Source: Oceanispirochaeta sp. (GTDB lineage Bacteria > Spirochaetota > Spirochaetia > DSM-2461). From it: DNA of 64,000 nt. The notes under the pieces are model-generated. The model was not told where the DNA came from. It saw only the letters and a program-made list of their open reading frames with translations, and searched no databases. The position numbers and the translations under genes are program-made. Below are positions 2,227 to 60,445 of this stretch, piece by piece (within the stretch, counting starts at the first letter, position 1; each line of letters opens with the position of its first letter). The DNA is taken from positions 480,001-544,000 of the forward strand of contig CAXXXD010000001.1 of the NCBI GenBank assembly GCA_963663385.2, in the 5' to 3' direction.

Positions 2227-2253
2227 CAGGGAATTCTATAAAATGAGGATATT

Positions 2254-3575: not shown

Positions 3576-3639
3576 GGAAACCTTCATTCCCGCCCTTTTT
3601 CTCCCAAAGGGAGAAGGGTTAAATTTTTTCTGAAAATGC

Positions 3640-3672
3640 AAAAGCCGGGTCCCCAGGGATTCCGGCTTTTTT
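3640..3672. terminator. Probable bidirectional intrinsic terminator between convergent genes
   Basis: AAAAGCCGG...CCGGCTTTTTT. Confidence 0.75.
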
Positions 3673-3766
3673 ATAGTTAAATTTATCTTGATGAATAACT
3701 CCCAAACCTGATTCAAGGTCTCACTCGACGCCTACGAAGGAGAGGTTCCTGAGCGAAGTCGAAGGA

Positions 3767-5257
3767 TTATTTTTCCGACAATACTTTATTCATGGCGGCG
3801 GCGGCTCTCCGGCCGTCACCCATTGCCAGGATTACTGTAGCAGCACCCTGAGAGATGTCTCCTCCGGCATAAACCATATCAAGAGATGTCTTCTGGTTCT
3901 CATCCACCACAACTGTTCCCCAATCTGTAAACTCCAGGCCGGGAGTTGTCTGCTGGATTAAAGGGTTGGAGGCGTTGCCGATGGCAGGGATACAGGTTTC
4001 AACCTCAATTTCAAATTCGCTCCCTTTGATGGGGACTGGCCGTCTTCTGCCGGAATCATCCGGTTCTCCCAGTTCAAATCTCTGACACTCAATGGCTCTG
4101 ACTCTGCCGGTTTCATCACCCAGAATCCTGACAGGGCTGGTAAGCATGTCAAAAATAACGCCCTCCTCCCTGGCGTGGTGAACTTCTTCCACACGGGCGG
4201 GCATCTCTTTTTCTGTCCGGCGGTAGATAATATGAACCTCTTCCGCTCCAAGACGTACTGCCGTACGGGCCGCATCCATAGCTACGTTGCCTCCGCCGAA
4301 AACCGCCACTTTTTTAGTCCTGTAGATGGGGGTTTCAGAGTTTTTTTCATCATAGGCTTTCATCAGGTTGGAACGGGTAAGGTATTCATTCGCCGAGAAT
4401 ACACCAACAAGGTTTTCTCCCTCTATGTGCATGAACTTGGGAAGACCGGCTCCTGTTGATATATATACGGCATCAAAACCGTCTTTTTCCATCAGATCTT
4501 TCAGTTTTCGGGTCCGTCCGACAAGGAAGCTGGTTTTTACCTCCACTCCCATTTCAATAAGTCCCTGAACTTCCAGTTCTACAATGCTTTTGGGCAGACG
4601 GAATTCCGGTATCCCATAGACCGTTACTCCGCCGGGTTTATGAAATGCTTCAAAAATGGTTACGCCATGTCCGGCTTTTCTGAGATCCGCTGCTGCGGTT
4701 AATCCGGAGGGGCCGCTGCCGATGATGGCAACCCTTTTACCTGTATCCGGTGCGCATTCCGGAGGCGTTACAGCATTATTCTCCCTTTCCCAGTCTGCCA
4801 GGTAGCGTTCAATACGGCCTATGGCAACGGACTGTTCCGGGTCTTTCAGGATTTTTCCCAGAGTACACTGCTCCATACACTGTTTTTCCTGAGGACAGAC
4901 ACGGCCGCAGATAGCGGGAAGCATACTGCTCTCTTTTATGACTCCGATCGCTTCTGAAAATTCACCTTTTCCCGAATGCCTGATAAAACGGGGTATATCA
5001 ATGCTGACAGGGCATCCTTTGATACAGGGGGCATTTTTGCACTGCAGACAGCGCTGGGATTCAACAATAACCTGCTCTTCCCAGTATCCCAGAGCTACCT
5101 CTTCCATATTATTCCTTCTGATGGAAGGATCCTGAGACGGCATGTCCTGCTGGGGGATCTCTCTTCTCTCTTTGGCAGTCAGGTCTTTTCCCTTCAGTCG
5201 TTCTGCAAGGACCGATGCTTCTTTATGTAATTCATCAGGTGTTTTGAATTCGCTCAT
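3767..5257 (-). CDS. nfnB: NfnB/GltA-like NADPH-dependent flavo-Fe-S subunit of an electron-bifurcating transhydrogenase
   Basis: RCLQC..PCIKGCPV, ICGRVCPQEKQC, GSGPSG, YGIPEFRLPK, GGGNVAMD; adjacent to nfnA. Confidence 0.85.
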   Translation of the reverse strand: MSEFKTPDELHKEASVLAERLKGKDLTAKERREIPQQDMPSQDPSIRRNNMEEVALGYWEEQVIVESQRCLQCKNAPCIKGCPVSIDIPRFIRHSGKGEFSEAIGVIKESSMLPAICGRVCPQEKQCMEQCTLGKILKDPEQSVAIGRIERYLADWERENNAVTPPECAPDTGKRVAIIGSGPSGLTAAADLRKAGHGVTIFEAFHKPGGVTVYGIPEFRLPKSIVELEVQGLIEMGVEVKTSFLVGRTRKLKDLMEKDGFDAVYISTGAGLPKFMHIEGENLVGVFSANEYLTRSNLMKAYDEKNSETPIYRTKKVAVFGGGNVAMDAARTAVRLGAEEVHIIYRRTEKEMPARVEEVHHAREEGVIFDMLTSPVRILGDETGRVRAIECQRFELGEPDDSGRRRPVPIKGSEFEIEVETCIPAIGNASNPLIQQTTPGLEFTDWGTVVVDENQKTSLDMVYAGGDISQGAATVILAMGDGRRAAAAMNKVLSEK

Positions 5258-6111
5258 TACTTTTGTTTCTCCATCAGTTTATCAGCCTGGGCATCAAGCC
5301 GGCAGCGGTGTTCCTCATGGGTGGTGTATGATTTCTGACGCAGCATCATGTTGTCAAAATCCACCAGATGACCATCAAATTCGGGACCGTCAACACAGAC
5401 AAATTTGGTTTTTCCTCCAACAGTTACCCGGCATCCCCCACACATGCCCGTTCCGTCTACCATAATTGTATTTAATGAAACCATGGTGGGGACCTTAAAG
5501 GGACGTGTTGTTTCTGCGCAGAATTTCATCATAATGGGAGGGCCTATGGAAAATACTTCAGCCGGAGGTGTATCGCTTTCACAGAGCTCCTTGAGGGGAA
5601 CTGTTACCAGATCTTTTCTACCGTAGGAGCCGTCGTCTGTACAGACTATCAGCCGATCAGCCTGGGCTTTCATTTCATCTTCCATAATAAGAAGATCCTT
5701 GTTACGGGCTCCCATAATAACAATTACTTCATTTCCCGCTTTTTTAAGGGCCTGTACTATCGGGTACATGGGAGCAACTCCGATTCCGCCTCCTACACAG
5801 ACAACAGGTCCTTCCCTTTTTTCAATATGTGTGGGCTGACCCAGGGGGCCCAGAACAGTTTCGACTTTTTCGCCAGCTTCCAGCCGGCTCAATTTTTTTG
5901 TTGTTGCTCCGACTGCCTGAAATATTATTTCGATAAACCCTTCCTGCGCATCCGCATTGGCGATTGTGAGGGGGATCCGTTCTCCATACTCCTTATCCAC
6001 CTGCAGAATAAGGAACTGTCCGGCCTTTCTTTCTTCTGCAATTAAAGGCGCATTGATTTTCATTCGGAAAACATCTGCTGAGAGTTGTTTCTTTTCTAGA
6101 ATAGTGTTCAT
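5257..6111 (-). CDS. nfnA: NfnA (SudB/PyrK-like FAD/NAD-binding 2Fe-2S subunit)
   Basis: GQF, ERIPLTIA, GPLG, GGGIGVAP, MVDGTGMCGGCRV, FVCVDGPEFDG; ATG at 6111 follows GGAG. Confidence 0.85.
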   Translation of the reverse strand: MNTILEKKQLSADVFRMKINAPLIAEERKAGQFLILQVDKEYGERIPLTIANADAQEGFIEIIFQAVGATTKKLSRLEAGEKVETVLGPLGQPTHIEKREGPVVCVGGGIGVAPMYPIVQALKKAGNEVIVIMGARNKDLLIMEDEMKAQADRLIVCTDDGSYGRKDLVTVPLKELCESDTPPAEVFSIGPPIMMKFCAETTRPFKVPTMVSLNTIMVDGTGMCGGCRVTVGGKTKFVCVDGPEFDGHLVDFDNMMLRQKSYTTHEEHRCRLDAQADKLMEKQK

Positions 6112-6323
6112 TTGGATCTCCAATATTTATAATAACTGAGATGCCTTTACAGGACAATTCTCTATAAAACAATCAATTTCTGAGATAGGTTCTGGATATT
6201 CTAATACTTTGAGCATGACTAATTTACCTTTTTTTAGGTAGAAAAGCAAATTTTTTAAAATCATCAGTTTATATAATGTGAATTATATTTCAATAAACCT
6301 GATTATGCGGCAGAAACGAGCTG

Positions 6324-6758
6324 TTAAACGTATTTGTTAAAGCTTTTAAGCATCAGAAAGCTTTCAGTTGATGTGACATTCTCAACGGCTGGAAGCTCTT
6401 CTGTCAGGAATCGGACCAGCCCATGGTTTGAGTCGATCAGAACCTGTATAAAGAGATCATAACGGCCCGTGGTAATGGATACATCCAGAACGTTGGGCAG
6501 GTCAGCTATCTCCTTTGCTTTGGACTCCAGGAGAGATGATTCCGATACGTTTACAGCAACTGTGGCTAACTGTTGATTTTCCAGGACTTCAGGGTTTATC
6601 AGAGCTCTGATCTTGACGATCCCGGCATCTTTCAAGCGTTTTAATCTTTGCCGGACTGTCCCCTCGGAAATGCCCAGAAGCCTTGCTATGGCATTGTTGT
6701 TCTGATGAGATTCCCTCAGGGTATTGATTATTTTCCAGTCTATTTCATCGGGTTGCAC
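6324..6758 (-). CDS. Lrp/AsnC family regulator, probably controlling ald
   Basis: [35 protein letters not shown]; overlaps the 3' end of ald. Confidence 0.88.
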   Translation of the reverse strand: MQPDEIDWKIINTLRESHQNNNAIARLLGISEGTVRQRLKRLKDAGIVKIRALINPEVLENQQLATVAVNVSESSLLESKAKEIADLPNVLDVSITTGRYDLFIQVLIDSNHGLVRFLTEELPAVENVTSTESFLMLKSFNKYV

Positions 6759-7867
6759 GGTATACTTTCCTCAATTGGAGTATACGGAAAATCCCATGCT
6801 TGGGCAACTCTCTCGCATGTCAGATGGCCGTTGTATGTATTAACTCCTTTCATTAGGGCAGAACTGCGGCAGACAGCTTCTTCTACACCAAGGTCCGCCA
6901 GCATCAGTCCATATTTCAATGTGGCTCCTGTGAGGGCCTGGGTGGATGTCAGGGCAACGGCTCCCGGCATATTGGCAACACAGTAGTGAACGATCCCATC
7001 TATGATGAAGACGGGATTATCGTGGGTTGTTGCTCTGGTTGTTTCAAAGCATCCCCCCTGATCAACCGCAACATCAACAATGACAGCTCCGGATTTCATC
7101 TCTTTCAGGTCCGTTTTGCTTATAAGATGGGGCGCTTTTGCGCCGGGTATCAGTACCGCACCGATTACAAGGTCGCTCTCTCTGATTACTTTGTGGATAT
7201 TCTCTTCCGTACTATACAGAGTCGTTACCTGGCCATGGAAAATATCATCCAGGTAAGCTAGGCGTTCAGCATTTATGTCAAGAATCGTTACTTCGGCTCC
7301 AAGGCCGACAGCCATCTTTGCAGCATTTGTGCCTACCACACCTCCCCCGAGAACGGCAACCCTGCCGCGATGGACACCGGGAACTCCGCCCAGAAGAACT
7401 CCTCTGCCTCCCTGAGGCCTTTCCAGAAACCGTGCTCCCTCCTGAACGGAAAGGCGGCCGGCAATTTCACTCATGGGGTTGAGACAGGGAAGTTTTCCAT
7501 GTTCTTCAATGGTTTCATAAGCGACGGCTTTTACTTTTTTCCTCATAAGAGCTTCGGTTTGAGCCTTGTCCGCGGCCAGATGCAGATAGGTAAAGAGGAT
7601 CTGCCCTTCATGAAAAAGATCATATTCGGAAGGTTGAGGCTCTTTTACCTTTATAACCATTTCCGCTCTGTCAAAGAGCTCTTTCTTATTGTCTACAATC
7701 TCTCCTCCGGCTTTTCTGTACTCCTCATCAGGGTATCCGGAAGAGGCTCCGGCATTTTTTTCAACCAGAACGGTGTGACCTCTTTTTGAATAGGCTTTGA
7801 CATTATCCGGAGTCAAACCTACACGGTACTCATGAGTTTTAATTTCTTTTGCTACTGCAATAATCAT
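6740..7867 (-). CDS. ald: Alanine dehydrogenase
   Basis: [56 protein letters not shown]; start re-called to 7867 after AAGGAG. Confidence 0.95.
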
Positions 7868-8010
7868 ACGAATCTCCTTTCGGGGACAATTTCTGGTTAG
7901 TGTTATCATGCTGGTATAATAAATCATAAAACGAAAATCGTAATATAACAAATAAAAAAGACGTAAAACGAATTCGGGAAGGGTTTAAAGGATTTTGTAC
8001 TTTAATAAGA

Positions 8011-8044
8011 AAAAGCCCCTGCGATTAGTATAAATGCAGGGGCT
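8011..8044 (-). terminator. Intrinsic terminator of the activase gene
   Basis: AGCCCCTGC...GCAGGGGCT hairpin followed by a U-tract on the minus strand. Confidence 0.7.
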
Positions 8045-8080
8045 GTAAATTGTTTCTATCAGGAAAACTCCGGAAGGCTG

Positions 8081-11000
8081 TCAGTCTCCGGCAACCATAA
8101 CCTCTTCTTCTTCAACTGGAGTGCTATGGTCGGATTCAATCAGATCCATGGAATCGGGATCGGATTTGAAGCGGAGTACATTCATCATAAAAATATTTAA
8201 TTTATTGATTATATTGGGAGGCAGCTGGTTGCCGTCTACCTCAATGGACATGGCTGGGTACTTCCTCTCTCTTGCCCAGGGTGTATACAGACCTTCGATT
8301 ACCCGGCCGATCAAACAGGCAAAGGGGGAAATGTTAATGACTCCCGAGTAACCCTCCTCCATGGCAGTAGCGGCCACACCGCTTGAAATGGCAATTTCAG
8401 AATTCAATTCCAGATTCAGAAAATTATCTGTTGTATTCTTCATTATCCTGTTCATATCATGGGGAGTATGGGGAATCAGGTCCGCATGACGGAGGCATTT
8501 TTTCACCTTACGTTCAATAGCATGCTTCCAGGCTTTTTCTATAGAGAGTTTTAAAAGGTCCCGCCTTTCTCTGCAGGTTGCCCGTTTATGCCAGGGCTGG
8601 AGTTTCAGTCTCTTGTTCAGATCGTAGTCCCTGACAAAATCCAGATAGTGTATCCACTCGGAAATTCCGGAAACTTTGGCAATGATGTTTTTACGGCTCA
8701 TCAGTTCCACCAGTTCATCAACCGCAAAATCATCCCGTCTCACATAGATCTCTCCCACGATCAGAACCCGTGGCACTTCGTGAATTGTCTTCTTCAGAGG
8801 GATTTTCGCAATTTCTTTAGCCACCTTTTCCAGAGCCGGATAGACGGTTTTAAAGTCCTTCTCTGCTGCGCTTGTCATTTCATGCCACAGTTCATTATAT
8901 TTCGCAATCGCCTCAGCCGGTTTCTCTGCACAGGCTCGCAGGGAGGTTTGTATATCCTTCATATAATCGGAAATAACAAGTCCCTGCCACATGTATTTAC
9001 TGAAGTTGGGACCCAGTTCCGTATAGGAGTTGTCGGCGCTCATGGTAATAACAACCACATTTTCCAGCCGCATATCCTTGAATAAGTTCTCGTAAAAGAC
9101 AAAGTACTGCCCCGTCCGGCAGGGGCCGGTTGTTATGGGTACGAAAAGAAGGTAGATCTCATCTTTTCTGTAATCCGGTGAATTGATGAATTTCAAAGCG
9201 CTTCCCAGTACCAGGTGGCTGGGAACACACTCCTTGCCGGAAGCGTGGCTTCTGGCAAGCTGCAGGGTTTTGGAATCGGCTTCCGGCATGGCTTCCGCAT
9301 TGTATCCGGAGGAACGGACGATGGACGCCATCATTTCTGTGGCCAGGTTACCCATATTGGAGAGCAGCATTTTTACACGGGGATTATTCCTGAACGGTAT
9401 TTTTTCTCCGGTGCTGGTATTCAATATATGAAGGTCTTCTTCTCCGTTATTAATAAACCGGAGGCCGTTGTCATAACGTTCCTCCTTTCCCCTGTCTTTT
9501 CGGGATCTGTACCCGTCAATAATATCGAGGAAGGCCTCGATCCGGGTATCCACTCCCGCGTCAGCTGAGTGAGAATCCAGCTCCAGAATCAGGAACGGTT
9601 TGGTTTCCATCATCCATTTCAGGTAATGGAGGATAAAAGAGTCCGGGGCACAGGAGAAGTTCGTTATATAGGTTACATAGATATTCGGCTCATCCTTCAG
9701 CATGGCTGCGGCTTTCATATCCAGCTGACCGTAATACCAGTACATATTGGAGAAAATCTTCTCCTCTCCAACAGGCAGTATATCGAAGGGGATAATGGAG
9801 TATCCCCGGCTGCTGAATTTCCGGGGAATACCCATATTGGCTTCCGGAGTAAACGCATTATAGGGTCTTCCAAGCAGAGCGATTACGGGATGATTAACCT
9901 CTCTGGCCTTGGCCAGGGCCTCTTTTCCAAGGTTTCTGGCTGCTTTCTGATAGGATTCCTGTTTGGAGAGTGCTTTTCTGAATGCCTTTTTGACATCGTC
10001 TTCAGACAGAGAAAGCTGTTCTCCCAGTTTAAGAAAGTATTCAAGGGCTTTTCCTTCTCCGAATTTAAAAGTAACGATCAGGGGCAGGAGTTTTTCTTCG
10101 GGGACATCGGGGAAGGCCTTCTGTATGTAGTAGGGCAGGCTCTGTGTAATGGGGCAGAAGTTGGCATGAACATCCTTTTCCATACTGGGCATGTCTCTGA
10201 AGTGCGGAACAAAGATATAGTCGGTTTTTTTATTGATTATGTCCTGTACCGCACCATGGGCAATTTCCGCCGGGAAACAGTAGGCACTCTCTACACGGGC
10301 TACTCCGTTGTGATCAATTTCATCGGAAAGAACGGTTTTTATACCCAATTCATGAAAGAACCAGGAGTAGAGGGGGTAGAGAGTGTGTACGGAGAAACAC
10401 TTGGGGATTCCAACAGAAAAGGGATGTTTCTGGGAGAAATCCTCGGCTTTCGGGGCATGGGTTTCAAACATCAGCTTATTCCGTTCGTCAATGTAATTAA
10501 CGACTTCCCCTTCGGGTTTAGTCTTATTGCTTGAGTTTGTATATTTGCTGCATCGTCCTCCGAACATATATCTATGTTCATTTACATTCAGTACCTGAAT
10601 GGGACAGTAGTTATCACAGCTCTTGCAGGTAAATACCTTGCCGTACTCAATCTGAGTATCCAGAACAGCTTCCAGATCAAAATTCCCCCGGTCCAGGAGT
10701 TCTTCCCGGTACTTCTGTCTGGCAAGAATACCAACTCCGAAACAGCCCATCAGTTCCGGTGCAGGGGGGACGAGAATTTCCTTATCCAGAAGCATGGCAA
10801 AAGCGAGGGGGACAGCCTTGTTTTTTGCCACACCACCCTGCAGGAAGATTTTCTTTCCGATTGTTCTGTTTCCAACAACGCGGTTCAGATAATTTGAAAC
10901 GATGGATGTTACGATTCCGGCAGTTATATCCTCCCTTCTGGCTCCCTGCTGAATGGCTTTACGGATATCGGAATTGATGAAGGCAGAACAGTGCTCGCCG

Positions 11001-45826: not shown

Positions 45827-46591
45827 TTAAACAGGATCAACGATCCCTATTTTCAACCGGTCTTTCATCCGGTATGAATCCCCTTTAAGACTCAGGACAT
45901 GTGCATGGTGAAGGAGCCTGTCTATAGTCGCTGTCGCAATGGCTTCATCATCCAGAATCTCAGCCCAACGACCGAAAGACTTGTTTGTGGTGATGATCAT
46001 ACTGCCTTGTTCATAGCGGGTGTTTACAATCTGAAAAAACAAGTTGGCCTGTTCTTTCGTCAGGTTCTCGTAGCCAACTTCATCGATAAGGATGAGATGA
46101 GGCTTTCTAAGCCAGGTAAGCCGTCGCTTCAACCGCCCCTGCTCCCGGGCATGGGTCAGATTCTCCATCAGATCGATGCAGCTTGTATACCATACAGTAT
46201 AACCATTCTGACAGGCTTTATGAGCCAGAGCTAGCATCAAATGGGTTTTACCCAATCCACTTGGCCCCATCAGTACTAGATTTTCCTTTCTTTCAATGAA
46301 AGCCAGACTAGAAAACTCTGCCAGTTGAGCAGCGGTCAATCCTCCCTTCAACCAGGATAGGTCGAAGTCCTCTAATAGCTTGATCGATGGCATTCCAGAG
46401 AGCTTCAGACGGCTTTTTGCAGCTCTCTCCTTACGGGGAACGTACTCCAGTTCCAATAGGTCTGCAATTGACTGAGAGAGAGTGTTTTCTGTGTGAGATT
46501 GAGCTTCAAGGAAGCTCTCCAACCCCGCCGCCATAAACTCCAGCCCTAAGTCGTTCATCCTGATCTCTATGGTCTCCTGCAGTACATTCAT
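45827..46591 (-). CDS. istB: IS21 helper ATPase
   Basis: GPSGLGKTH, LIDEVGY, TTN, A..DRLLHH, GDSYR. Confidence 0.95.
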   Translation of the reverse strand: MNVLQETIEIRMNDLGLEFMAAGLESFLEAQSHTENTLSQSIADLLELEYVPRKERAAKSRLKLSGMPSIKLLEDFDLSWLKGGLTAAQLAEFSSLAFIERKENLVLMGPSGLGKTHLMLALAHKACQNGYTVWYTSCIDLMENLTHAREQGRLKRRLTWLRKPHLILIDEVGYENLTKEQANLFFQIVNTRYEQGSMIITTNKSFGRWAEILDDEAIATATIDRLLHHAHVLSLKGDSYRMKDRLKIGIVDPV

Positions 46592-47871
46592 GCTGTTACC
46601 CCCATAAGCTTGTCGTAGCTTTCAGGATGGCGTGTATCAACCTCTGTATGCATCAATGATGACCTGGGAGTATTCTTTATTTCCGGGACACTGGCAACGA
46701 CATTCCTTTTTGTCATGCGATTCTCTTTCTTCCAGCGTTTAACCAGTGAGTCGGTATCAATCTTTCGGATAGATTCTAATTTCGCACCTTTTGTCAGAAG
46801 CTTGAAGGTTCTAACAGGGGCCCCATCAATGAAGATAGCGGCAGTTCTTGCCAGCGTATCTACTTTCAGTGTCGCAACTTGTCCTATGAAGTCCGCGGGA
46901 ATGCTGTACTTGTTTGATTCAAAACGAATAAACCCTTCTCTGGAGACAAGCAGTTCTTTAACCAGCCTTACATCTGGAGCTGCCTCAGGGTTCCAAGGGT
47001 TCATAAACTGCCTTTCGTACTCAAATCTCTCTTTTCGAGTCTGTTTAAATTGGCTCATCTGCTGTTCCACTACTGTTTTGATCCATTTGGAGACAGTCAG
47101 GTTTAAATCGTTTATTGAGCGGCTCTTCATTGCTTCTTCACGGATCAAGAAGTTGTGGCCCAGGTAACCGATAAAACGCTCTACCTTTCCCTTAGTTTGC
47201 GGTCTACGAACTTGGCAGCGAAGAGGAGTGAAACCACAGGCTGAAGCAAAGGCCAGGAGCTTTGAGTTCACGTGCCAGACACCGCCGTTGTTGTACCAGG
47301 CTGTTCTCATGTTGTCGTAAAGAATTTCCTTCGGAACAGCACCGAAGAACCGGAATGCCATCAGATGGGCTTGGAGCAATGTCGGCGAGGTCATATCCAA
47401 GGAGAAAAGGACAAACGGGATCCTACTATATCCCAGCAGCATGACAAATGCATATACTTTCTGAAGTTTGCCATCAATCTCCATTTTTCCGCATTCTTTC
47501 CAGTCAACTTGGGCCTGTCTTCCCGGCTCTGTTTCAAAGCGGATTACTGCTTTCTCAATCAGTTTCTTCCTGTACTTCCGGGCATAGTCACGTAGGATTG
47601 TCATTTTTCCAGAATAACCGGAGTTTTGTAGTCTCTCATGAAGATAAACGAGGTTGAAGTATGGATCATTTTCCAAGGTATCTTCTATTATGGGGTAGAA
47701 TGGTTTAAGGATGCTTTCCCGGGATTTCCTGGGACGGGTTCTGAAGTCCGGATTCAGGTATTTCCTTACCATCCGGTCGCTGACACCAAGATACTCAGCG
47801 ATATACTTTTGAGTATGGCCTTCGTTGGCCATGATGCGTGCTACATGCATGCGATCTTCCTTTTGACACAT
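46588..47871 (-). CDS. istA: IS21 DDE transposase
   Basis: RFETEPGRQAQVDW, LGYSR, YDN, PQTKGKVER. Confidence 0.95.
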   Translation of the reverse strand: MCQKEDRMHVARIMANEGHTQKYIAEYLGVSDRMVRKYLNPDFRTRPRKSRESILKPFYPIIEDTLENDPYFNLVYLHERLQNSGYSGKMTILRDYARKYRKKLIEKAVIRFETEPGRQAQVDWKECGKMEIDGKLQKVYAFVMLLGYSRIPFVLFSLDMTSPTLLQAHLMAFRFFGAVPKEILYDNMRTAWYNNGGVWHVNSKLLAFASACGFTPLRCQVRRPQTKGKVERFIGYLGHNFLIREEAMKSRSINDLNLTVSKWIKTVVEQQMSQFKQTRKERFEYERQFMNPWNPEAAPDVRLVKELLVSREGFIRFESNKYSIPADFIGQVATLKVDTLARTAAIFIDGAPVRTFKLLTKGAKLESIRKIDTDSLVKRWKKENRMTKRNVVASVPEIKNTPRSSLMHTEVDTRHPESYDKLMGVTA

Positions 47872-51332: not shown

Positions 51333-52445
51333 TTACCCAGTTTTTACGGCATTGAATGCAGCCGCCTGCATCTTCAAGTACTTATCATCCGGAACCATCT
51401 TCAACGGATCAAAGGGTTCACGGGTTTTCAATATGGAGTACACTACCGTACTCATCTTTCTTGCAGAGGCGATAATACTCGTGCCGCTGCCCTTGTTCTT
51501 CTTCATCGCTCTGTACTTCGTCATGATACGGTAATTGCCAGTCGTTTTCCGAGTTCTAACCATTCCCATAACACACTGAACAAATGCCGTTCTCAGTTCT
51601 ACAGCCCCTCTCTTTGTTATATGCCCATGATGAATCGTCTCATTGGAGTTCTGCACCCATGGTACAAGACCGGCATAAGCCGAATACTTCTTGGCACTGG
51701 CGTACCGCTTGATATCATCCGTATAGGCCCTAATAGTCGATGCCGTTATCAATCCGACTCCCGGGATCGTCTGCAATAACTGTACATCCTCATCTTCCTT
51801 TACAAGTTCCAGCAGGACTTTCTCTAACTGCTTGACCTGGTTCGAAACCTGATCTATCGTAGAAAGCAGCGGTTCTATCGCTTTGGCAGCGCTTCCGAAA
51901 CTCCTATGGTCCACGAGACCGATGAGGATGCGCTGCCTTTCTTTTTTACTCTGCAGCGCAGCTCTTTTTGTTTCAATTCCATACCCTAGAAGCAGTCCGT
52001 GAACCTGATTCTTCAAAGATACGACTGATTTAACAAGGATAGTTCTGGATTTAAGAACTCTACGGATATCCTCACTCTCCTGAGAACAAAGCTGTGATTC
52101 GGGAAGCATATCTTTTTCCAAGAACTCTGCTAGAGTTCTGGCATCATGCTTATCCGTCTTTTTCACTGATTCATTTACAACTTTGAATTTCAGTGTATTC
52201 ACAACCACCACCTCAATCCCTGCTAGCAATAGCTTGTTACGGAAGAACCGGGCATTTCCTGTTGATTCCACTGCAGCCCTAACATCAAGGCCCTCTTCTG
52301 TATAGGACACTGCTTTCTCAAGAAATGCTCTGTAACCGTCCTCAGAGGTCGGATACATTCCTGATTCACAAATGCTTCTATCATCACTCAGGAAACAGAC
52401 TGTTAACTGGGATTTGTGCAGATCCACTCCGATACTCATCTTCAT
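51333..52445 (-). CDS. IS110 recombinase/transposase
   Basis: GVDLHK, VEST, KTDKHDA (DEDD), IPGVG, AYAGLVP..NS..GHITKRG; start re-called to 52445 (or 52439) after ATAGGAG. Confidence 0.95.
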   Translation of the reverse strand: MKMSIGVDLHKSQLTVCFLSDDRSICESGMYPTSEDGYRAFLEKAVSYTEEGLDVRAAVESTGNARFFRNKLLLAGIEVVVVNTLKFKVVNESVKKTDKHDARTLAEFLEKDMLPESQLCSQESEDIRRVLKSRTILVKSVVSLKNQVHGLLLGYGIETKRAALQSKKERQRILIGLVDHRSFGSAAKAIEPLLSTIDQVSNQVKQLEKVLLELVKEDEDVQLLQTIPGVGLITASTIRAYTDDIKRYASAKKYSAYAGLVPWVQNSNETIHHGHITKRGAVELRTAFVQCVMGMVRTRKTTGNYRIMTKYRAMKKNKGSGTSIIASARKMSTVVYSILKTREPFDPLKMVPDDKYLKMQAAAFNAVKTG

Positions 52446-52459
52446 ACCTTCGCTCCTAT

Positions 52460-52645
52460 TGCCTAAAACAGCGCCTGTACGGTGAATTGATTCCATTCTC
52501 CTATCCGGTCTCGAAGACCATTGAATGTTTCGGTCACGGCTCTTCATTCTCCTGTACGGTCTCGGAGACCAGTAAAAATGGCGAACAGTAACCTGGCTGT
52601 TCTAAACGATGTTTAGAACATTGTATCAATCCACAAGCCTATGAA
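52460..52645 (-). ncRNA. Putative IS110 bridge RNA
   Basis: Perfect 10-bp 5' hairpin, then two duplicated stem-loops carrying target- and donor-matching 7-mers; RNA ends are approximate. Confidence 0.7.
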
Positions 52646-54021: not shown

Positions 54022-54259
54022 AGGTAAATCTTATTGTAAAATCGTTTTTTTTGCATCATTTCGGTTTGACTATCCATTGGATTTGTCATCAGGCCTTATA
54101 TATTCTGAAGAAGATAGGAATCATTCCAATGGTGTTTTTTCTAATCTTGTCTGCCGGCGGCAGGATGCCAGGTTCAGGGAATCCATATTGTGGTATCTTT
54201 CAATAATTTTCGATACATCTGTCTGTTGTTCTTCTCAGGTCGGAATAAATGTTTTAAGC

Positions 54260-54600
54260 GGAATCAGTTTTGCATTTTACCGGTTAATATCGACAGTCGG
54301 TCCAGAAGGCTGTTCCAATAATGTTTATGCAGATCACAGGCTGAAGAAGGATAAAGTAGCGCAAGCCTTTGACGGCTGTGGGGATAGTTGGCGTGGATGA
54401 ATGGATAAACATGGAGATAAAGAAAACAGGGAAGCTCTGCAGGACAATAAATACGATCATAGCAAAGCTTATGGATACCCTCGTTTCCATCACCAGGGAG
54501 TACTATTCTCATGTAGTTTTCGGTCAGACCCAGTACCTCGCTGTTGGCTCCAAAAAGGGTAAGAATACTAACTATAAGCAAGCAGGATAGTGATAAATCT
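54260..54600 (-). pseudogene. Probable degraded MATE efflux transporter remnant
   Basis: Fragments in different frames (ILTLFGANSEVLGLTENYMRIV; GLRYFILLQPVICINIIGTAF) resemble MATE helices; no full ORF. Confidence 0.45.
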
Positions 54601-54834
54601 TACCAATATCAAGAGATTTGAAATCTAACTAATAATAACATCAGATTTATCCAATTGAACATTGTATTTCAGTTGAAAATGACTTGAGGAAGTATATATG
54701 ACTGTTTTAATAATAAACAAATATTCCATATTATTCCTGGTTTTTTTATATACGGAGAGTTTTTTCCCCGGTAATCTGCCTACAGAAAGAAGTTACAATT
54801 TTATCCTTTCAATAGGATCCGTATGGATATTTTA

Positions 54835-54972
54835 ATAAGTGATGTAAGGGAAACAGGTTGGAATCCTGTACAGCAGCCACTGCCGTAATTGCTTACGATG
54901 ATACGTTATAACATTGGGAAACCGAGAAGTCGTGTCGGAGAAAAAAGCATAAGTCGGAAGACCTATCACGTT
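54835..54972 (+). ncRNA. Cobalamin riboswitch aptamer
   Basis: AGGGAA-ACAGG..AATCCTGT..GCCACTGCCGTA..CATTGGGAAACCGAGAAG..AAGTCGGAAGACCT (B12 box); upstream of ABC uptake and cbiK; ends approximate. Confidence 0.88.
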
Positions 54973-55020
54973 TTGGTAATTTTTCGGGCAGTGGAAAATT
55001 TATTACCAAATCAAAAGAGT

Positions 55021-55045
55021 AATGCCCGAGAGGGCATTTTTTTTT
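55021..55045 (+). terminator. Riboswitch-controlled intrinsic terminator
   Basis: AATGCCC-GAGA-GGGCATT followed by a T run. Confidence 0.85.
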
Positions 55046-55112
55046 AGTGCATATCATCAATATGGCTTAATTCCGCCATATCGGTTGAAAAATGTTTTAT
55101 AAGGAGTTTTAA

Positions 55113-56624
55113 ATGAGAAAACTGACATTAATTCTATTATGTCTGTTTGTTTCAGGCGGTATGCTTATTGCCGGAGGACAGAAAGATGTCCCCGTAGCGG
55201 ATACGGAGATAATTGCAGGGACTTATGAGGGCCTCAGCCATGGTTTTCACGGAGACCTTCCCGTAAGTGTTGACGTTGACAGTACGGGAAAAATTGTATC
55301 TGTTTCGGTTGGAAAAAACAGCGAAACAAAAAACATTGGAACTTTGGCCATAGACAGGATCCCCGGGCAAATTGTTGAAAATCAGTCCTTTGATGTTGAC
55401 TCCATCTCCGGGGCGACAGTAACAACCAAAGCCATTCTTGCGGCAACGGCGCAGGCTGTTGAGCAGGCCGGGATGAATCCAGCAGATCTGGGGTATGTGG
55501 CCCCTAAAGCACCTGCATTTGAAATGGTCAGATTTGATGCCGCTGCACTCCCTGTAAAGTCAGAAAAAACCGGGACGGTTACTGTTACCGATGCCAGAGG
55601 GCGGGAAGTTACCATCGAAACCCCCATTTCCTCCTATGGAATAAGTACTATGGATGTCATCGACTTTATTATCCCTTTTATGGGAGAAGAGGCATTTAAA
55701 ATGCTTGTAGCTGCCGGTCAGGACGGAGGGGGTGGTATTCAGCGCTATGCCCGTCTGTATTCACCCATAGTAGGAAATTACAACGAACATGTGGGACAGA
55801 TCTCCGAGCATAACGCCCCCTTTGATCTCGAGATGATACTGGCAACCGATCCGGATGTAATATTTATCAATGCCGCCATGGGCGCCCACGGGCATGCCAT
55901 GGATATTGAAGATCAGCTGGATGCGGCCGGAATCCCTTTTGTCTGTATCAGTATTCCCGGTAAGGATGTCAGCACAGCCTCTCAAAAGGCAATCGGTCTG
56001 ATTGCAAAGGTTTTTCAGAAAGAAGAGGAAGCACAGGACGTTATCGGTTTTATTGATGATCAGTTTGCCGTCATCAATGAGAAAGATCTCCAGAACCGGG
56101 ACGATAAACCTCTGGTTTACTATGAAAAGGGGGGGCATGAAGAGATTTTCGGCAGAACAAGTACCAGCGCTCCCGGCGGGTGGGGGCATCTTGTGACCTA
56201 TTCCGGAGGGTTCAATATTGCCGATCCCCTGCTGTTTGATACCATAGCCTGTAAAGCAACGGGAAATACACTTGATCCTGAATATGTTCTTGAAACCAAT
56301 CCGGATTATGTTGTGATGTCCGCGGCAGGAGATGCCTGGATGACAAACTTTTCTGATGACCCCACTCCTGATATCAGTTTCGACATTGTTAAACGTATCG
56401 GATGGAATGAGCTTAAGGCGGTACAGAATGATCAGGTGTATGACCTGTCTCATGCCATGTGGCGTTCTGTTTACAGTTTCAATGCCTGTCAGTTTATGGC
56501 CAAAAAATTCTATCCGGATCTGTTTACGGATCTTGATCCCGACGCTGTCATGGATGAGTTCTTTGAACGGTTTATGCTTACCGACAGCAGTATTACGCGA
56601 TGGACTTTCAGTATTGACGAATGA
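55113..56624 (+). CDS. ABC solute-binding protein (BtuF/Fe-siderophore class) with an N-terminal FMN-binding domain
   Basis: Signal peptide; GTYEG..GFHG..VDSISGATVTT; then VTDARGREV, E.IL..DPDV, PEYVL..NPD, AVQNDQVY. Confidence 0.85.
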   Translation: MRKLTLILLCLFVSGGMLIAGGQKDVPVADTEIIAGTYEGLSHGFHGDLPVSVDVDSTGKIVSVSVGKNSETKNIGTLAIDRIPGQIVENQSFDVDSISGATVTTKAILAATAQAVEQAGMNPADLGYVAPKAPAFEMVRFDAAALPVKSEKTGTVTVTDARGREVTIETPISSYGISTMDVIDFIIPFMGEEAFKMLVAAGQDGGGGIQRYARLYSPIVGNYNEHVGQISEHNAPFDLEMILATDPDVIFINAAMGAHGHAMDIEDQLDAAGIPFVCISIPGKDVSTASQKAIGLIAKVFQKEEEAQDVIGFIDDQFAVINEKDLQNRDDKPLVYYEKGGHEEIFGRTSTSAPGGWGHLVTYSGGFNIADPLLFDTIACKATGNTLDPEYVLETNPDYVVMSAAGDAWMTNFSDDPTPDISFDIVKRIGWNELKAVQNDQVYDLSHAMWRSVYSFNACQFMAKKFYPDLFTDLDPDAVMDEFFERFMLTDSSITRWTFSIDE

Positions 56625-57655
56625 ATGAAAATCGACTGATTTATAGTAAAATGATCAGCAGAAGGATCACTATGATAGTGGTCCTTCTTGTTGCAGTCTT
56701 CCTGCTTTTTCTGGTGAATATTTCCATAGGTTCATCCCGAATCCCGATGATGGAAATTTTACAGATTCTGTTTACCGGAGAAGGATCAGGTCATAAAGAT
56801 ATGATTGTTATTAATGTACGGCTTCCCATGGCGTTGATGACCATTGCCGTGGGGATCTGTCTGGGAATCGGAGGGTGTGAAATACAGACCATACTGCGCA
56901 ATCCTATAGCCAGTCCCTATACACTGGGTATTACCAATGCTGCAACATTTGGAGCAGCCCTCGGACTGATAAACAATACAACGCTGCCCTGGATTCCGGA
57001 AAAACTGATGGTAACCGGGAATGCCTTCCTTTGTGCCGTTTTCGCCTCTGTCTGCATTTTTGCATTTTCCAGAAAGCGGGGAGCCAACAAGAATGCCATT
57101 ATCCTTTTTGGAATGGCCATGAATTTTATGTTCAGCGCCCTGACAATGATTATGCAGTATATTGCGGATGATGAAGACCTGAAGAGTCTTGTCTTCTGGA
57201 GTATGGGAAGTATGCTGAAATCAACATGGGGTAAATTCTGGGTTGTTTTTGCTGTTCTTATTTTCAGTATCATTATTCTTGTTAAAAACAGCTGGAAGCT
57301 GACCGCCATGACCCTTGATGATACAAAGGCAAAGAGTCTTGGCGTAGATACGAATGTTCTGCGGCGAATGGTAATACTGATCTGCTCCCTGATTACAGCT
57401 GTTGCGGTTAGCTTTGTGGGAACTATAGGGTTTGTGGGAATCATAGCGCCCCATATAGCCAGGCAGCTTGCGGGAGAAGATCAGCGTTTTTTCATGCCCC
57501 TGGCGGCACTTATCGGTGCACTTGTTCTGTCTGTGTCTTTCGCTGTGAGTAAAGTGATTATTCGGGGAGTTATCTTTCCGATCGGACTTGTAACGGCGGT
57601 AATAGGTATTCCTGTCTTTATGTTTATAGTGTTTAAAAAGGCAAGGTCATTCTGA
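56621..57655 (+). CDS. FecCD/BtuC-type ABC permease
   Basis: VRLP, Q..LRNPIASPYTLG, AKSLGV, GTIGFVGIIAPHIAR. Confidence 0.92.
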   Translation: MNENRLIYSKMISRRITMIVVLLVAVFLLFLVNISIGSSRIPMMEILQILFTGEGSGHKDMIVINVRLPMALMTIAVGICLGIGGCEIQTILRNPIASPYTLGITNAATFGAALGLINNTTLPWIPEKLMVTGNAFLCAVFASVCIFAFSRKRGANKNAIILFGMAMNFMFSALTMIMQYIADDEDLKSLVFWSMGSMLKSTWGKFWVVFAVLIFSIIILVKNSWKLTAMTLDDTKAKSLGVDTNVLRRMVILICSLITAVAVSFVGTIGFVGIIAPHIARQLAGEDQRFFMPLAALIGALVLSVSFAVSKVIIRGVIFPIGLVTAVIGIPVFMFIVFKKARSF

Positions 57656-58503
57656 TGATTAAGGTCGAAAAGCTTACATTTTCCTATACAGGTATAAAGA
57701 GTTCCCAGCCCGTATTCAATAATCTCAGTTTCAGTTTCAAAAGCGGGTTTAATACCATTCTCGGACCAAACGGAGCGGGGAAATCCACCCTTCTGATGTC
57801 TCTGTTCGGCTTGTTGAATTACGAAGGAGAGATCTTTTACGGCAAGCGGAATCTTTCGGAAATGGGATCGGAAGAGAGGATCAGACAGATGTCCTATCTT
57901 CCGCAGATGGATATCGATACGTCCATGCTTTCGGTTCTGGAGATGGTTCTTCTGGGTCGTCTGCCCGAGCTGAAAAGAAAAATCTCAGACAGAGATCTGG
58001 ATATTGTTATGCGTATTATGAGACAGCTGAATATAGACTCTCTTGCTCAAAGAACATTCAGTGAGCTCAGCGGGGGACAGCAGAAGCTGGTCTTTATTGC
58101 CCAGACTCTTGTACGGGAACCAGGACTGATTCTTCTGGACGAGCCGATTAATTCACTTGACCTGCAAAAGCAGCTGGAACTCTGCCACCTGTTAAAACAG
58201 ATTGTAAGAAATGATTCTGTGGATATTATAACTGTATTGCATGATATTAATCTTGCTTCCAGATACTCGGATCACATTGTTATAATTGACAGAAACGGAG
58301 AGTATTACAACAGCGGGACTCCCGGAGAAACAATAACGGAAACAATGCTGCGGGATGTTTACGGGGTCATTGCATCGGTAAATTATGATGAGCATCAGAT
58401 CCCGATTGTGTCGCCCCTCCGGTCTGTCCGTATTGATGAGGAGGAAGTCCGGAAAAAAGAGATGGCCCGTGTTCCCGTGTTATTTTCAGGCCGTTCAATT
58501 TAA
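57655..58503 (+). CDS. ABC ATPase (FecE/BtuD-type)
   Basis: GPNGAGKST, LSGGQ, LLDEP, LHDINLA. Confidence 0.93.
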   Translation: MIKVEKLTFSYTGIKSSQPVFNNLSFSFKSGFNTILGPNGAGKSTLLMSLFGLLNYEGEIFYGKRNLSEMGSEERIRQMSYLPQMDIDTSMLSVLEMVLLGRLPELKRKISDRDLDIVMRIMRQLNIDSLAQRTFSELSGGQQKLVFIAQTLVREPGLILLDEPINSLDLQKQLELCHLLKQIVRNDSVDIITVLHDINLASRYSDHIVIIDRNGEYYNSGTPGETITETMLRDVYGVIASVNYDEHQIPIVSPLRSVRIDEEEVRKKEMARVPVLFSGRSI

Positions 58504-58538: not shown

Positions 58539-59318
58539 ATGATTAAGAAAGGAATACTGCTGGCCGCTTTCGGAACTACCTACAATGCGACGGAAGAGAA
58601 GTGTATTACCCCTATGATAAGACTTACGGAAAAAATGTTTCCGGACTATAAGGTTTCAATTGCCTACACCTCGACCATTGTTATTAAAAAACTGGTCCAA
58701 AGGAACCGGAATATCTCCCTTCCTCTGGAGGAAGCGGAGAAAATGCTGGCTGCCGGTATTAAAGAACTTATTGTCCAGCCTCTGCATTTTATGAAAGGCC
58801 ATGAGTTTGATAAAAAGATTGTAGAACCACTTGAATCAGTCAGAACCCGATTTGAGAAATTTTCCATTGGGAATCCCCTGCTTTCGGAAGAGCAGGATTT
58901 TTTGGAGACAGCAGAAGTCATCAGGAAACTTTCCCTGTCTGTGAACAATGAAAAGATACTTCTTATGGGGCATGGAACGGATCACCCGGAAGACCGGGTA
59001 TACGGTTTGATGCAGGAGTCTCTGTACCGGAAAAAGGTTAATGCGGAAATTGCCACGGTGGAGGGGGGAATCACCTTTGAAGATGCTCTTGAACGAATAA
59101 AAAAAACCGGAACAGAAAAGGTGCACCTTTTTCCCTTTATGCTGGTTGCTGGTGATCATGCCAGTAATGATATGGCGGGAGATGACGATGACAGCTGGAG
59201 GAACAGACTTCTTCAGGAAGGTATTCAAGGGGTTCCCCATCTTCAGGGTCTGGGTGAGTCCGAACAAATCCGTGAGATGTTTATCTGCCATATCAAGGCT
59301 TGTATGAAACAGCAGTAG
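58539..59318 (+). CDS. cbiK: Sirohydrochlorin cobaltochelatase
   Basis: FGTT, AYTS, VQPLH..G.E, MGHGT, PFMLVAGDHASNDM, GLGE; no signal peptide. Confidence 0.9.
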   Translation: MIKKGILLAAFGTTYNATEEKCITPMIRLTEKMFPDYKVSIAYTSTIVIKKLVQRNRNISLPLEEAEKMLAAGIKELIVQPLHFMKGHEFDKKIVEPLESVRTRFEKFSIGNPLLSEEQDFLETAEVIRKLSLSVNNEKILLMGHGTDHPEDRVYGLMQESLYRKKVNAEIATVEGGITFEDALERIKKTGTEKVHLFPFMLVAGDHASNDMAGDDDDSWRNRLLQEGIQGVPHLQGLGESEQIREMFICHIKACMKQQ

Positions 59319-59329
59319 GGAGATGTAAT

Positions 59330-59743
59330 ATGGAAATAGTGTTCAAACCAATTGGCTTTATCCGGTCCCCTTATAAAGACAGGGCGGAAATCCCCAAACA
59401 GGGCGCACATACCGAAACGGAGGGAGAAGTGATTCTGCAGGATGAGCTTATCCGGGGATTGAAGGATCTCGACTCTTTTGAACATATTGTCATTCTCTTT
59501 AATTTTCATGGATCAGAAGGGTATGAACTGCTTCAGCACCGCAGGGGGGACAGAACAACAGAACCGGTAGGAGTCTTTGCGACCCGTTCTCCCTTCAGGC
59601 CTAATGGCATCGGAATGTCCATTGTTAAAGTTGTGGATATTGCTGAAAACAGAATCCGCTTTAAAGGTGTGGATATGCTGGATGGCACCCCTGTTCTGGA
59701 TATCAAGCCGTATATAGAGGGGCTTAATCCGGGCAATGAATAG
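59330..59743 (+). CDS. TsaA/TrmO-like SAM-binding protein (short, single-domain form)
   Basis: PIG.I.SP, GVFATRSP.RPN.IG, GVDMLDGTPVLDIKPY; start re-called. Confidence 0.85.
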   Translation: MEIVFKPIGFIRSPYKDRAEIPKQGAHTETEGEVILQDELIRGLKDLDSFEHIVILFNFHGSEGYELLQHRRGDRTTEPVGVFATRSPFRPNGIGMSIVKVVDIAENRIRFKGVDMLDGTPVLDIKPYIEGLNPGNE

Positions 59744-59977: not shown

Positions 59978-60445
59978 TTAACTGACAAATTCGGCCCCAA
60001 AGGCCTTAAAGCGATCTTCATCGGCCCGGGACAGGGACTTTCCCTTCGTTACGCTTGCAGGTGTTCCTGCCCTGCCTATAGGGCCATCCTTGTAATTATC
60101 GCATCCTTTGCTGCTCAAAAGTCTTCTGATATGATCCAGGGTGTTTTTTCCACCCGCAAAAGCATGAACGGCAAATCCTCCACATTTCTTATGCTTGAGA
60201 CATTCTTCGGGCAGTTCCTGAAGCACATTGACAATAGGCTTGGCCGCTGCGTCCTTGGCAATGACACCGGCCCAGCAGGGACTTCCAACAATAAAAGCAT
60301 CGCAGTCTTCAATCATAGAGTCTTTGAAATCTTCTGTGGTAACGACTGTAACTTCCGCTCCTGAGGATTTCAGTCCTTCGGCCATGGAAGTCACTGCTTC
60401 GAGGGTATGTCCTGTTTTTGAATAATAGAGTACGAGTACTTTCAT
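59978..60445 (-). CDS. Flavodoxin-like protein
   Basis: LYYSKTGHT, IVGSPCW. Confidence 0.8.
   Translation of the reverse strand: MKVLVLYYSKTGHTLEAVTSMAEGLKSSGAEVTVVTTEDFKDSMIEDCDAFIVGSPCWAGVIAKDAAAKPIVNVLQELPEECLKHKKCGGFAVHAFAGGKNTLDHIRRLLSSKGCDNYKDGPIGRAGTPASVTKGKSLSRADEDRFKAFGAEFVS

Follow-up and report, generated by a model that had tools for sequence, protein, structure and literature searches.

Flavin-carrying domains that work outside the cytosol and the solute-binding proteins of ATP-binding cassette (ABC) importers have both been described in bacteria, and the gene considered here joins one to the other in a single protein. It lies at positions 55113-56624 of a 64 kb stretch of Oceanispirochaeta sp. 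DNA (hereafter the window, meaning the whole 64,000 nucleotides analysed), stands first behind a cobalamin riboswitch and encodes an FMN_bind domain, a predicted carrier of flavin mononucleotide (FMN), followed by a solute-binding domain. A preliminary description made from the sequence alone read the product as a redox-coupled uptake protein whose tethered flavin reduces Co(III) corrinoids or cobalt chelates before import. Its observation of the fusion is confirmed and its interpretation is partly supported.

Several described systems share part of this design. The FMN_bind reductases, such as the urocanate and fumarate reductases, PplA and RnfG/NqrC, are presented in sections of a flavinylation survey (PMC8238504) with the same Pfam domain and motif, N-terminal and behind an export signal, and with the electron donor encoded elsewhere; the partner in the present fusion is, in contrast, a non-enzymatic ABC solute-binding domain and no oxidoreductase. 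BtuFCD also combines a Peripla_BP_2 protein, a FecCD-type permease, an ATPase and riboswitch control, and BtuC is the best match of the permease encoded beside the fusion, but the fusion's binding domain of about 350 residues has no BtuF match at E ≤ 0.01, matches the chelate-binder fold and is accompanied by an extra FMN domain. CbtJKL of Sinorhizobium meliloti, likewise an ABC importer with a binding protein and controlled by an adenosylcobalamin riboswitch, carries Co(II) and not vitamin B12 (B12) according to the relevant part of a review (PMC7689651); the likeness lies in control and transporter type, and no flavin domain is reported for it. The best sequence and fold matches of the fusion are two cluster A-2 metal-chelate binders, YiuA (Yersinia) and the 'FepB' structure 4MO9 (Veillonella parvula), although YiuA has neither FMN domain nor B12 control and differs in its site-1 triad. 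Flavinylation-linked iron clusters (P19/FTR1, and bfeUO-sifABCDE of Bifidobacterium breve with its SifE) encode an extracytosolic FMN-binding protein together with a metal importer, and metal reduction before transport is the role proposed for them (PMC5449479 and, in the sections concerned, PMC8238504). Their flavoprotein is nevertheless separate, their transporters are FTR1 or FtsX-type ABC systems, and they respond to iron rather than to B12. Finally, PduS and CobR use a protein-bound flavin to reduce cobalt in a corrinoid that they bind (PMC2982820), but these proteins have unrelated folds, are cytoplasmic, use a non-covalent flavin driven by reduced nicotinamide adenine dinucleotide (NADH) and do not belong to a transporter.

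A fusion of FMN_bind to a solute-binding protein is not described in main-text sections of two flavinylation surveys (PMC11334425 and PMC8238504, the large cluster table of the latter possibly listing the architecture), in a 2025 review of ApbE or in full-text literature searches, the one for the two Pfam domains together returning no paper with both. Papers on corrinoid starvation of Dehalobacter and on cobalt starvation of Desulfofundulus make no mention of an FMN-binding transporter. This agrees with the preliminary description, whose author knew of no characterised example: the building blocks are each known, but not in this combination. ABC binding proteins are regarded as passive receptors, and a conserved, obligatory flavinylation site would add electron transfer to capture. 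If true, this would open a new mechanistic class among ABC importers, give cobalt or B12 acquisition a new step outside the cytosol, and tie extracytosolic flavinylation to the cobalt/B12 economy, which shapes anaerobic communities (organohalide respirers, acetogens, gut Firmicutes).

The fusion protein and its family

The gene is the longest frame at its position according to open reading frame (ORF) analysis, and its parts, in amino acids (aa) of the product, are the following.

55113-56624, plus strand: fusion gene, 503 aa, with putative signal peptide, FMN_bind domain, linker and class III (Peripla_BP_2) solute-binding domain
55113-55199, plus strand: putative N-terminal export signal, formed by a hydrophobic helix (aa 2-16), with disordered sequence as a tether up to about aa 29
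55242-55463, plus strand: FMN_bind domain (PF04205), aa 44-117, Pfam E 5.8e-14
55407-55418, plus strand: SGAT flavinylation motif, residues 99-102, Thr102 being the predicted FMN phosphoester site
55560-56621, plus strand: solute-binding (c-clamp) domain, about aa 150-503, delimited by Pfam Peripla_BP_2, Foldseek and the PDB profile search

Pfam and the translation bear out the order of domains that had been proposed (putative signal peptide, FMN_bind, binding domain) and place the SGAT motif, reported as intact, at residues 99-102. The protein starts with MRK and a hydrophobic stretch, which the AlphaFold2 model (mean predicted local distance difference test score, pLDDT, 87.4; predicted template modelling score, pTM, 0.79) renders as a helix at residues 2-16 followed by disorder at 17-29. 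A lipoprotein signal at Cys10 was considered and rejected: by the general lipobox rule, the hydrophobic stretch preceding this cysteine lacks the length required, and I-L-L at residues -3 to -1 does not match a lipobox. The FMN_bind match scores 52.9 bits against a cut-off of 22, covers profile positions 1-77 of 77 and was returned with identical coordinates by a genome-wide search. RnfG is the top NCBIfam match on this side of the protein, and the closest solved structure is 8p2b (E 6.6e-18), domain 1 of a Clostridiaceae four-FMN protein, which becomes multiflavinylated upon co-expression with ApbE according to the section of a review that deals with it (PMC12052999). The ApbE flavinylation motif is given in the survey passages as [S/T]GA[S/T] (PMC8238504), and the fusion carries it as SGAT with a threonine acceptor. 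On the other side, Peripla_BP_2 (PF01497) matches residues 238-445 (E 3.1e-18, 66.5 bits against a cut-off of 27.5). A complex prediction between the FMN domain (aa 30-128) and the binding domain (aa 146-503), with alignments for both, scored 0.00 against a mark of 0.32, and nothing is drawn from this score.

The architecture is beyond chance because it recurs: a domain-architecture search, which the preliminary description had proposed, found PF04205 and PF01497 together in 96 of the 120 protein clusters listed, the window's own included. Clusters of the fusion family span about 480-550 aa and are 46-56% identical to the window protein. All members with a named source are Firmicutes (Desulfitobacterium, Desulfosporosinus, Desulfotomaculum, Desulfocucumis, Oxobacter, Fusibacter, Alkalibaculum and Maledivibacter, together with metagenome-assembled genomes labelled Clostridiales, Peptococcaceae, Eubacteriaceae and Tissierellia). 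At the 50%-identity level, among 1.84 billion representatives, the family consists of two full-length clusters (P0051 and P0122) and fragments; the other high scorers of that search were multi-FMN_bind proteins or unfused binding proteins, and no second type of fusion between FMN_bind and a binding protein was seen among them. Six high scorers were scanned with Pfam, of which P0143, P0218 and P0259 are tandem repeats of the binding domain and P0131 and P0177 single unfused binding proteins. Public records give the fusion proteins generic names, apart from the full-length fusion P0051 of Oxobacter pfennigii, whose source calls it a 'urocanate reductase precursor', a name evidently mis-transferred through FMN_bind.

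Conservation is strict at the motif. Across 37 aligned members, Gly100 and Ala101 are invariant, position 102 is threonine in 36 and serine in one, and position 99 is S, T or A; with these two invariant residues and Thr/Ser102 in 37 of 37, the predicted flavinylation site is under selection. The same alignment reveals a lipobox cysteine or lipoprotein signal in most Firmicute homologues and a glycine at the aligned position of the window protein. The source genome encodes a TonB-dependent receptor Plug domain and an OmpA domain and therefore looks diderm. Because of this, and because glycine replaces the lipobox cysteine, the window protein is probably soluble and periplasmic.

Cobalamin control and conserved partners

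Upstream and downstream of the fusion gene, the window contains the following elements.

54798-54984, plus strand: cobalamin riboswitch aptamer (RF00174), 57.2 bits (gathering score 31.5), matched over the full model 1-189
55021-55047, plus strand: intrinsic-terminator-like stem-loop and T-run, a 7-pair stem at 55021-55038 and then TTTTTTTT
56621-57655, plus strand: FecCD-family ABC permease, Pfam FecCD E 1.1e-82
57655-58503, plus strand: ABC ATPase, Pfam ABC_tran E 2.5e-25
58539-59318, plus strand: CbiK-type class II chelatase (sirohydrochlorin cobaltochelatase family), Pfam CbiK E 1e-68 over the full length
59300-59743, plus strand: TrmO_N-only protein of 147 aa (UPF0066/YaeB fold), Pfam TrmO_N E 5e-35

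The riboswitch is the sole Rfam match at the gathering score in the window, and the fusion is indeed the first gene under it, as had been stated. The stem-loop begins 37 bases past the aptamer and is the likely expression platform; its layout suggests a transcription-attenuating switch that would be OFF when B12 is bound. AGGAG directly precedes the ATG of the fusion gene. The four genes downstream of the fusion are co-oriented and overlap or leave short gaps, with permease start and fusion stop overlapping. The top NCBIfam matches of the permease are BtuC (E 6e-56) and FhuB, both under their cut-off, and permease and ATPase follow in the same order in homologous loci. The chelatase scores 213.9 bits with the NCBIfam model SiroCoChCbiK, under its 400-bit cut-off, and has no evident signal peptide. 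A flavodoxin-like gene at 59978-60445 is convergent to the operon and was not counted in the unit. Among 52 of the 53 ORFs picked in the window (the 107-aa ORF at 54077-54400 being left out), Pfam found no ApbE and no membrane redox or electron carrier, in line with the preliminary description.

The link to cobalt and B12 extends beyond the window. By Rfam, a cobalamin riboswitch directly precedes the fusion in four metagenome loci (L025, L026, L029 and L041) and precedes an ArsR-TrmO-fusion string in a fifth (L039), that is in 5 of 19 loci; with the window and genome G453 included, 7 of the 23 fusion loci searched have one. At 80% identity, 24 loci (these 23 and L040, which had no Rfam search) collapse into 12 lineages, 11 riboswitch-free loci forming a single lineage. 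Counted in this way, 7 of 12 lineages have a riboswitch and 8 of 12 have a riboswitch or cbi genes. Three loci lie within cbi clusters (L027/L028 and L030, with CbiK, CbiMNQO, CbiB and CobD), and the order in L030 is CbiK-CbiM-CbiN-CbiQ-CbiO-TrmO-fusion-permease-ATPase-CbiB-CobD. CbiK adjoins the system at L025, L027, L028, L030 and in the window, and lies on the opposite strand at L047. As markers of the cobalamin pathway, CbiC and CbiB were searched; each of the two whole genomes with the fusion has both, which fits de novo B12 synthesis. The source genome has seven cobalamin riboswitches. Three lead a Peripla_BP_2 protein matching the BtuF model with E values of 1e-13 to 5e-16, below the cut-off, and one leads a TonB-dependent receptor; since the genome has so many of what look like ordinary importers of corrinoids, the fusion system probably serves another purpose. 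The further argument that the genome has no other cobalt transporter was dropped, as tblastn with CbiM, CbiN and CbiQ of L030 came back empty but a Pfam search for CbiM found one.

Flavinylation genes are encoded apart from the operon in the source genome. Absence of ApbE from the genome would have spoken against the earlier proposal; one ApbE is present (300.7 bits, G000:C3:1589862-1590689). Its N-terminus is of lipoprotein type, ending in a lipobox-like LAVSC, and it is located about 6.5 kb from an NQR-like cluster of NqrB-like, FMN_bind, two Rnf-Nqr and NqrF-like genes. The genome also holds an EetB-like gene. FMN_bind has six matches in it, two of them in open frames of 634 and 612 aa. The relatives G001, G002, G007 and G019 have up to 15 matches per genome, mostly the FMN_bind part of frames of about 600-670 aa. 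Such frames probably encode flavinylated periplasmic reductases, pointing to a large extracytosolic flavin redox repertoire in the lineage. Because of these six matches and of the up to 15 in relatives, the source genome and its relatives would already run an extracytosolic electron supply for FMN_bind domains.

A more direct link is provided by genome G453, in which alone the fusion was found when 401 genomes from the phylum of genome G061 were searched. There, a cobalamin riboswitch (105 bits) is followed by a 136-aa FMN_bind lipoprotein, a class I S-adenosylmethionine (SAM) methyltransferase, the fusion (508 aa), FecCD, the ATPase, ApbE, NusG_II and a PF07456 protein, on one strand, head to tail and free of long gaps. 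PF07456 corresponds to EetB, which in Listeria binds the substrate as a subunit of a flavin adenine dinucleotide (FAD) exporter that supplies ApbE/FmnB, and which is often colocalised with apbE, according to the passages concerned (PMC9973259). Because ApbE and an EetB-type gene share this riboswitch-led string with the fusion, binding protein, importer, predicted flavinylating enzyme and flavin supply appear to form one B12-controlled unit in G453. Comparative genomics thus lends support to that part of the earlier proposal which linked flavinylation to uptake. Next to the fusion in the 38 metagenome loci, tblastn found no small FMN_bind protein, class I methyltransferase, NusG_II or EetB, the only match being the fusion's own FMN domain.

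A further conserved partner, which the preliminary description did not mention, is a protein resembling TrmO. In metagenome loci with enough upstream DNA, a TrmO_N-only gene immediately precedes the fusion in 20 of 21 (the exception is L036; L038 and L040 are too short to judge), whereas in the window it sits downstream instead. Full-length tRNA TrmO has a C-terminal domain. The window partner consists of TrmO_N alone (aa 30-140 of 147) and is not a full-length TrmO, although it scores 133 bits with the NCBIfam TrmO model, above the cut-off of 93, and the NCBI rule would give it the TrmO name. Its nearest structure is AF_0241 (2nv4, E 4.9e-26), a single-domain protein of 147 aa, the other solved relatives having 169-247 aa. 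Eleven aligned partners conserve motifs including GVF.xRSPxRPN and D.K, and all are devoid of the C-terminal domain of tRNA TrmO. Single-domain TrmO_N genes are also near-constant beside unfused, TonB-receptor-linked versions of the system (L049, L052, L054, L058). This transporter-linked subgroup suggests a function other than tRNA methylation.

MarR and TrmO-like genes form a unit before the riboswitch in four riboswitch loci; the MarR gene at L029:3725-4180, the one tested among equivalents in L025, L026 and L041, has as its best NCBIfam match BilQ, a regulator of bilirubin utilisation (68.8 bits against a cut-off of 125). In G453, the partner position is held by the unrelated class I SAM methyltransferase. 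The top NCBIfam match of the class I enzymes, 'corrinoid protein-associated methyltransferase', is weak, sub-threshold and confined to the SAM-binding core. In the source genome, a paralogous system that is unfused and free of a riboswitch (L084, G000:C2:487000-499000, ORFs 5325-9653) comprises a 370-aa Peripla_BP_2 protein, a class I SAM methyltransferase, FecCD, ATPase and a zinc-ribbon FmdE; its methyltransferase is homologous to that of G453 (30% identity, E 3e-33). FmdE-family genes mostly adjoin metal-ion transporter genes, and a fusion of the FmdE N-domain to UPF0066 (TrmO_N) exists, as reported in the part of PMC2954224 devoted to them. Because two different methyltransferase folds occupy the same place, these neighbourhoods argue that a SAM-dependent step belongs to the transporter system. 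The near-constant TrmO-like or methyltransferase neighbour would then point to a second step and provide a candidate function for single-domain UPF0066 proteins that are not tRNA methyltransferases.

Cargo, mechanism and competing explanations

The nature of the binding domain bears most directly on the cargo. It had been assigned to the BtuF/siderophore class, and the BtuF part of that assignment is not supported: BtuF is not among the eight NCBIfam matches of the fusion at E ≤ 0.01, the best of which is PRK14048, and the nearest structures are chelate binders of the YiuA/FepB type. Foldseek ranks V. parvula 'FepB' 4MO9 first, then YiuA of Yersinia ruckeri and Y. pestis, with MolA, HtsA and CeuE lower. 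The 4MO9 and YiuA matches have a Foldseek probability of 1.00, a target-normalised template modelling (TM) score of 0.78-0.83 and 23-25% identity; the Y. ruckeri YiuA structures matched are apo, iron-bound, bound to iron nitrilotriacetate (Fe-NTA) and bound to iron with a catecholate fragment. A PDB profile search gave 4mo9 with E 2e-42 over profile positions 154-501. The basic triad of YiuA site 1 is Arg64, Arg165 and Arg223 in Y. pestis, as numbered in the relevant section of PMC5683015. In alignments based on hidden Markov models (HMM), the equivalents in the fusion are Asp181, Pro282 and Lys339, so that one basic residue is kept; the equivalence of Arg64 and Asp181 is our own assignment on the Y. 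ruckeri YiuA row. His331 of YiuA aligns with His447, kept in at least 90% of members, and the invariant residues of the family include Met180, Asp181, His233, Met256, His259, Tyr336, Tyr337, Glu338, Lys339 and Trp357. Such a pocket would suit a metal, or a metal complex with positive or no net charge, more than an anionic catecholate. Candidate pocket residues are also kept, as read by eye, in the basal unfused homologue P0116, whose relatives (L049 and others) sit behind a TonB-dependent receptor and have no riboswitch.

The explanation that we tentatively prefer, at somewhat less than an even chance, is the reductive capture and import of a cobalt chelate feeding CbiK. A cobalt complex is favoured as cargo because of the CbiK and CbiMNQO contexts, the chelate-binder fold devoid of a BtuF signal, the other BtuF-like systems of the same genome, the pocket residues that recur in homologues without B12 regulation, and the precedent of CbtJKL in the section cited (PMC7689651). 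N-terminal FMN_bind domains are thought to pass electrons to the periplasmic reductases fused to them, as discussed in the survey sections (PMC8238504); by analogy, electrons of a separately encoded donor should reach the occupant of the binding cleft through the tethered flavin. The following scheme is our inference as regards flavinylation, the cargo, which way the electrons flow and what CbiK and the TrmO-like protein do. When B12 is scarce, the riboswitch terminator would not form and the operon would be transcribed. The fusion protein would be exported and ApbE would attach FMN to Thr102; this flavin would be charged by the separately encoded extracytosolic electron supply common to the other FMN_bind reductases of the genome. 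The binding domain would catch cobalt in complexed form, a non-corrin Co chelate being most likely, and at the pocket or close to it the flavin would reduce Co(III) to labile Co(II). Permease and ATPase would import the cargo, from which CbiK would insert Co(II) into sirohydrochlorin for de novo B12 synthesis, and the cytoplasmic, SAM-binding TrmO-like protein might process the cargo or its ligand. The broader proposal would make the binding protein itself a redox catalyst, whose flavin reduces an inert Co(III) chelate, or a corrinoid bearing its upper ligand, in the cleft to transportable Co(II) at the transporter. The system would include, in some genomes, genes for flavinylation and FAD export that serve it specifically, as well as a cytoplasmic SAM-dependent enzyme devoted to processing; taken as a whole, this proposal is possible though on the unlikely side.

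Several observations weigh against capture and reduction of a cobalt chelate. Unfused homologues are nested among the fused ones in a quick tree, the only phylogeny made, and on this tree the flavin domain would have been lost at least once and would be dispensable in some lineages. ApbE adjoins the fusion in a single case (G453) and was not found by tblastn in the stretches of the 38 metagenome loci. The riboswitch is absent from 14 of 19 fusion loci in one Rfam set and from both loci of another, and five of those 19, re-searched at E ≤ 1, again gave none. The source genome has CbiM-family and NicO-like genes by Pfam and is therefore not dependent on the fusion system for cobalt. The named carriers are anaerobic, and free Co(III) chelates should be rare in their habitats. 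Lastly, a methyltransferase-type partner fits a corrinoid cargo at least as well.

This last point leads to the main rival, corrinoid salvage, in which the binding domain would capture cobalamin, cobinamide or another corrinoid and the FMN would reduce cob(III) to cob(II) and expel the upper ligand (CN, OH or similar) before import, the cytoplasmic SAM-dependent partner, a TrmO-like protein or a class I methyltransferase, then trapping or processing the corrinoid. The chemistry is sound, as the FMN flavoproteins PduS and CobR reduce cob(III)alamin (PMC2982820), and the classical reading of riboswitch-led Peripla_BP_2/FecCD operons is that they import corrinoids. The best NCBIfam match of the permease is BtuC, albeit below the cut-off (E 6e-56), and in L028 and L030 the transporter immediately precedes CbiB and CobD, which act late in the pathway, at the cobinamide stage. 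The methyltransferase would also be better explained: two unrelated SAM-methyltransferase folds occupy the same position, and the best match of the class I enzymes, weak and sub-threshold, is 'corrinoid protein-associated methyltransferase'; this CpaM match, however, spans the SAM-binding core only. The binding domain also has no BtuF signal, whereas three other riboswitch-led binding proteins of the genome show one, and by fold it comes closest to metal-chelate binders. Candidate pocket residues, read by eye on P0116, are kept among the basal unfused homologues, yet these are TonB-receptor-linked and have a riboswitch in 0 of 8 loci by Rfam (loci of few lineages, to judge by their equal identities and geometry). 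We consider corrinoid salvage unlikely on this balance.

Reductive uptake of another metal chelate, for instance of Fe(III), with B12 control as a secondary feature of some lineages, is distinctly improbable. The YiuA/FepB fold class does bind iron chelates (PMC5683015, in its structural part), flavinylated proteins are linked to iron reduction and uptake in sections of PMC8238504, and mutants of Bifidobacterium breve in sifE, which encodes an FMN-binding protein, and in apbE are chelator-sensitive (PMC5449479); most metagenome loci are also devoid of the riboswitch. Against this, riboswitch or cbi context covers 8 of 12 lineages, no iron regulator or gene is conserved as a neighbour (a lone DtxR-type gene occurs in L029) and the basic triad of YiuA is replaced by D181, P282 and K339. 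Least probable of all is an FMN domain that does not act on the cargo (a relay, redox sensor, guard of an oxidation-sensitive cargo or remnant on an ordinary binding protein), for although close unfused homologues are nested among the fused ones and the cluster encodes no electron donor, the motif is strict throughout the 37 members, whose overall identity to the window protein is 46-56%, and ApbE, EetB and a second FMN_bind lipoprotein are found in the G453 operon.

Origin of the operon and further B12-linked systems

The fusion has no full-length match in 60 relatives of the source genome (10 of the genus, 26 of the family and 24 of the class), where the best matches span one half only; a single-protein scan of the genome contigs gave three partial matches. 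Transposase genes of the IS21 type (integrase and IstB) and of the IS110 type are located at 45827-47871 and 51333-52547, 2.5-9 kb upstream, and in the quick tree the window protein is placed on a long branch within a Firmicute clade. The composition has no signal of recent transfer: G+C is 0.45 in the operon and G+C at third codon positions (GC3) 0.45-0.49, against 0.465 for the genome. We read the operon as acquired horizontally, because of its absence from the 60 relatives, the transposases upstream and the long branch in the Firmicute clade, but probably not recently, since its composition is unremarkable.

Other arrangements of related parts were encountered. Four proteins of 723-1134 aa (P0117, P0143, P0218, P0259) carry two or three tandem Peripla_BP_2 domains of the YiuA-like subclass and no FMN_bind. 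In the source genome, a riboswitch at L070 (G000:C4:1026800-1034800, ORFs 373-4276) leads a CbiK homologue, a BtuF-like binding protein and a 583-aa protein ending in an ABC ATPase domain; this CbiK homologue has about 35 extra N-terminal residues and is possibly exported. At L071 (G000:C4:34500-42500), a riboswitch of 92 bits is followed by a 451-aa protein with no Pfam or NCBIfam match, FecCD, an ATPase, a NifH-like ATPase and two Oxidored_nitro (nitrogenase-component-1-like) proteins, an unusual joining of a B12-controlled nitrogenase-like reductase to an ABC importer.

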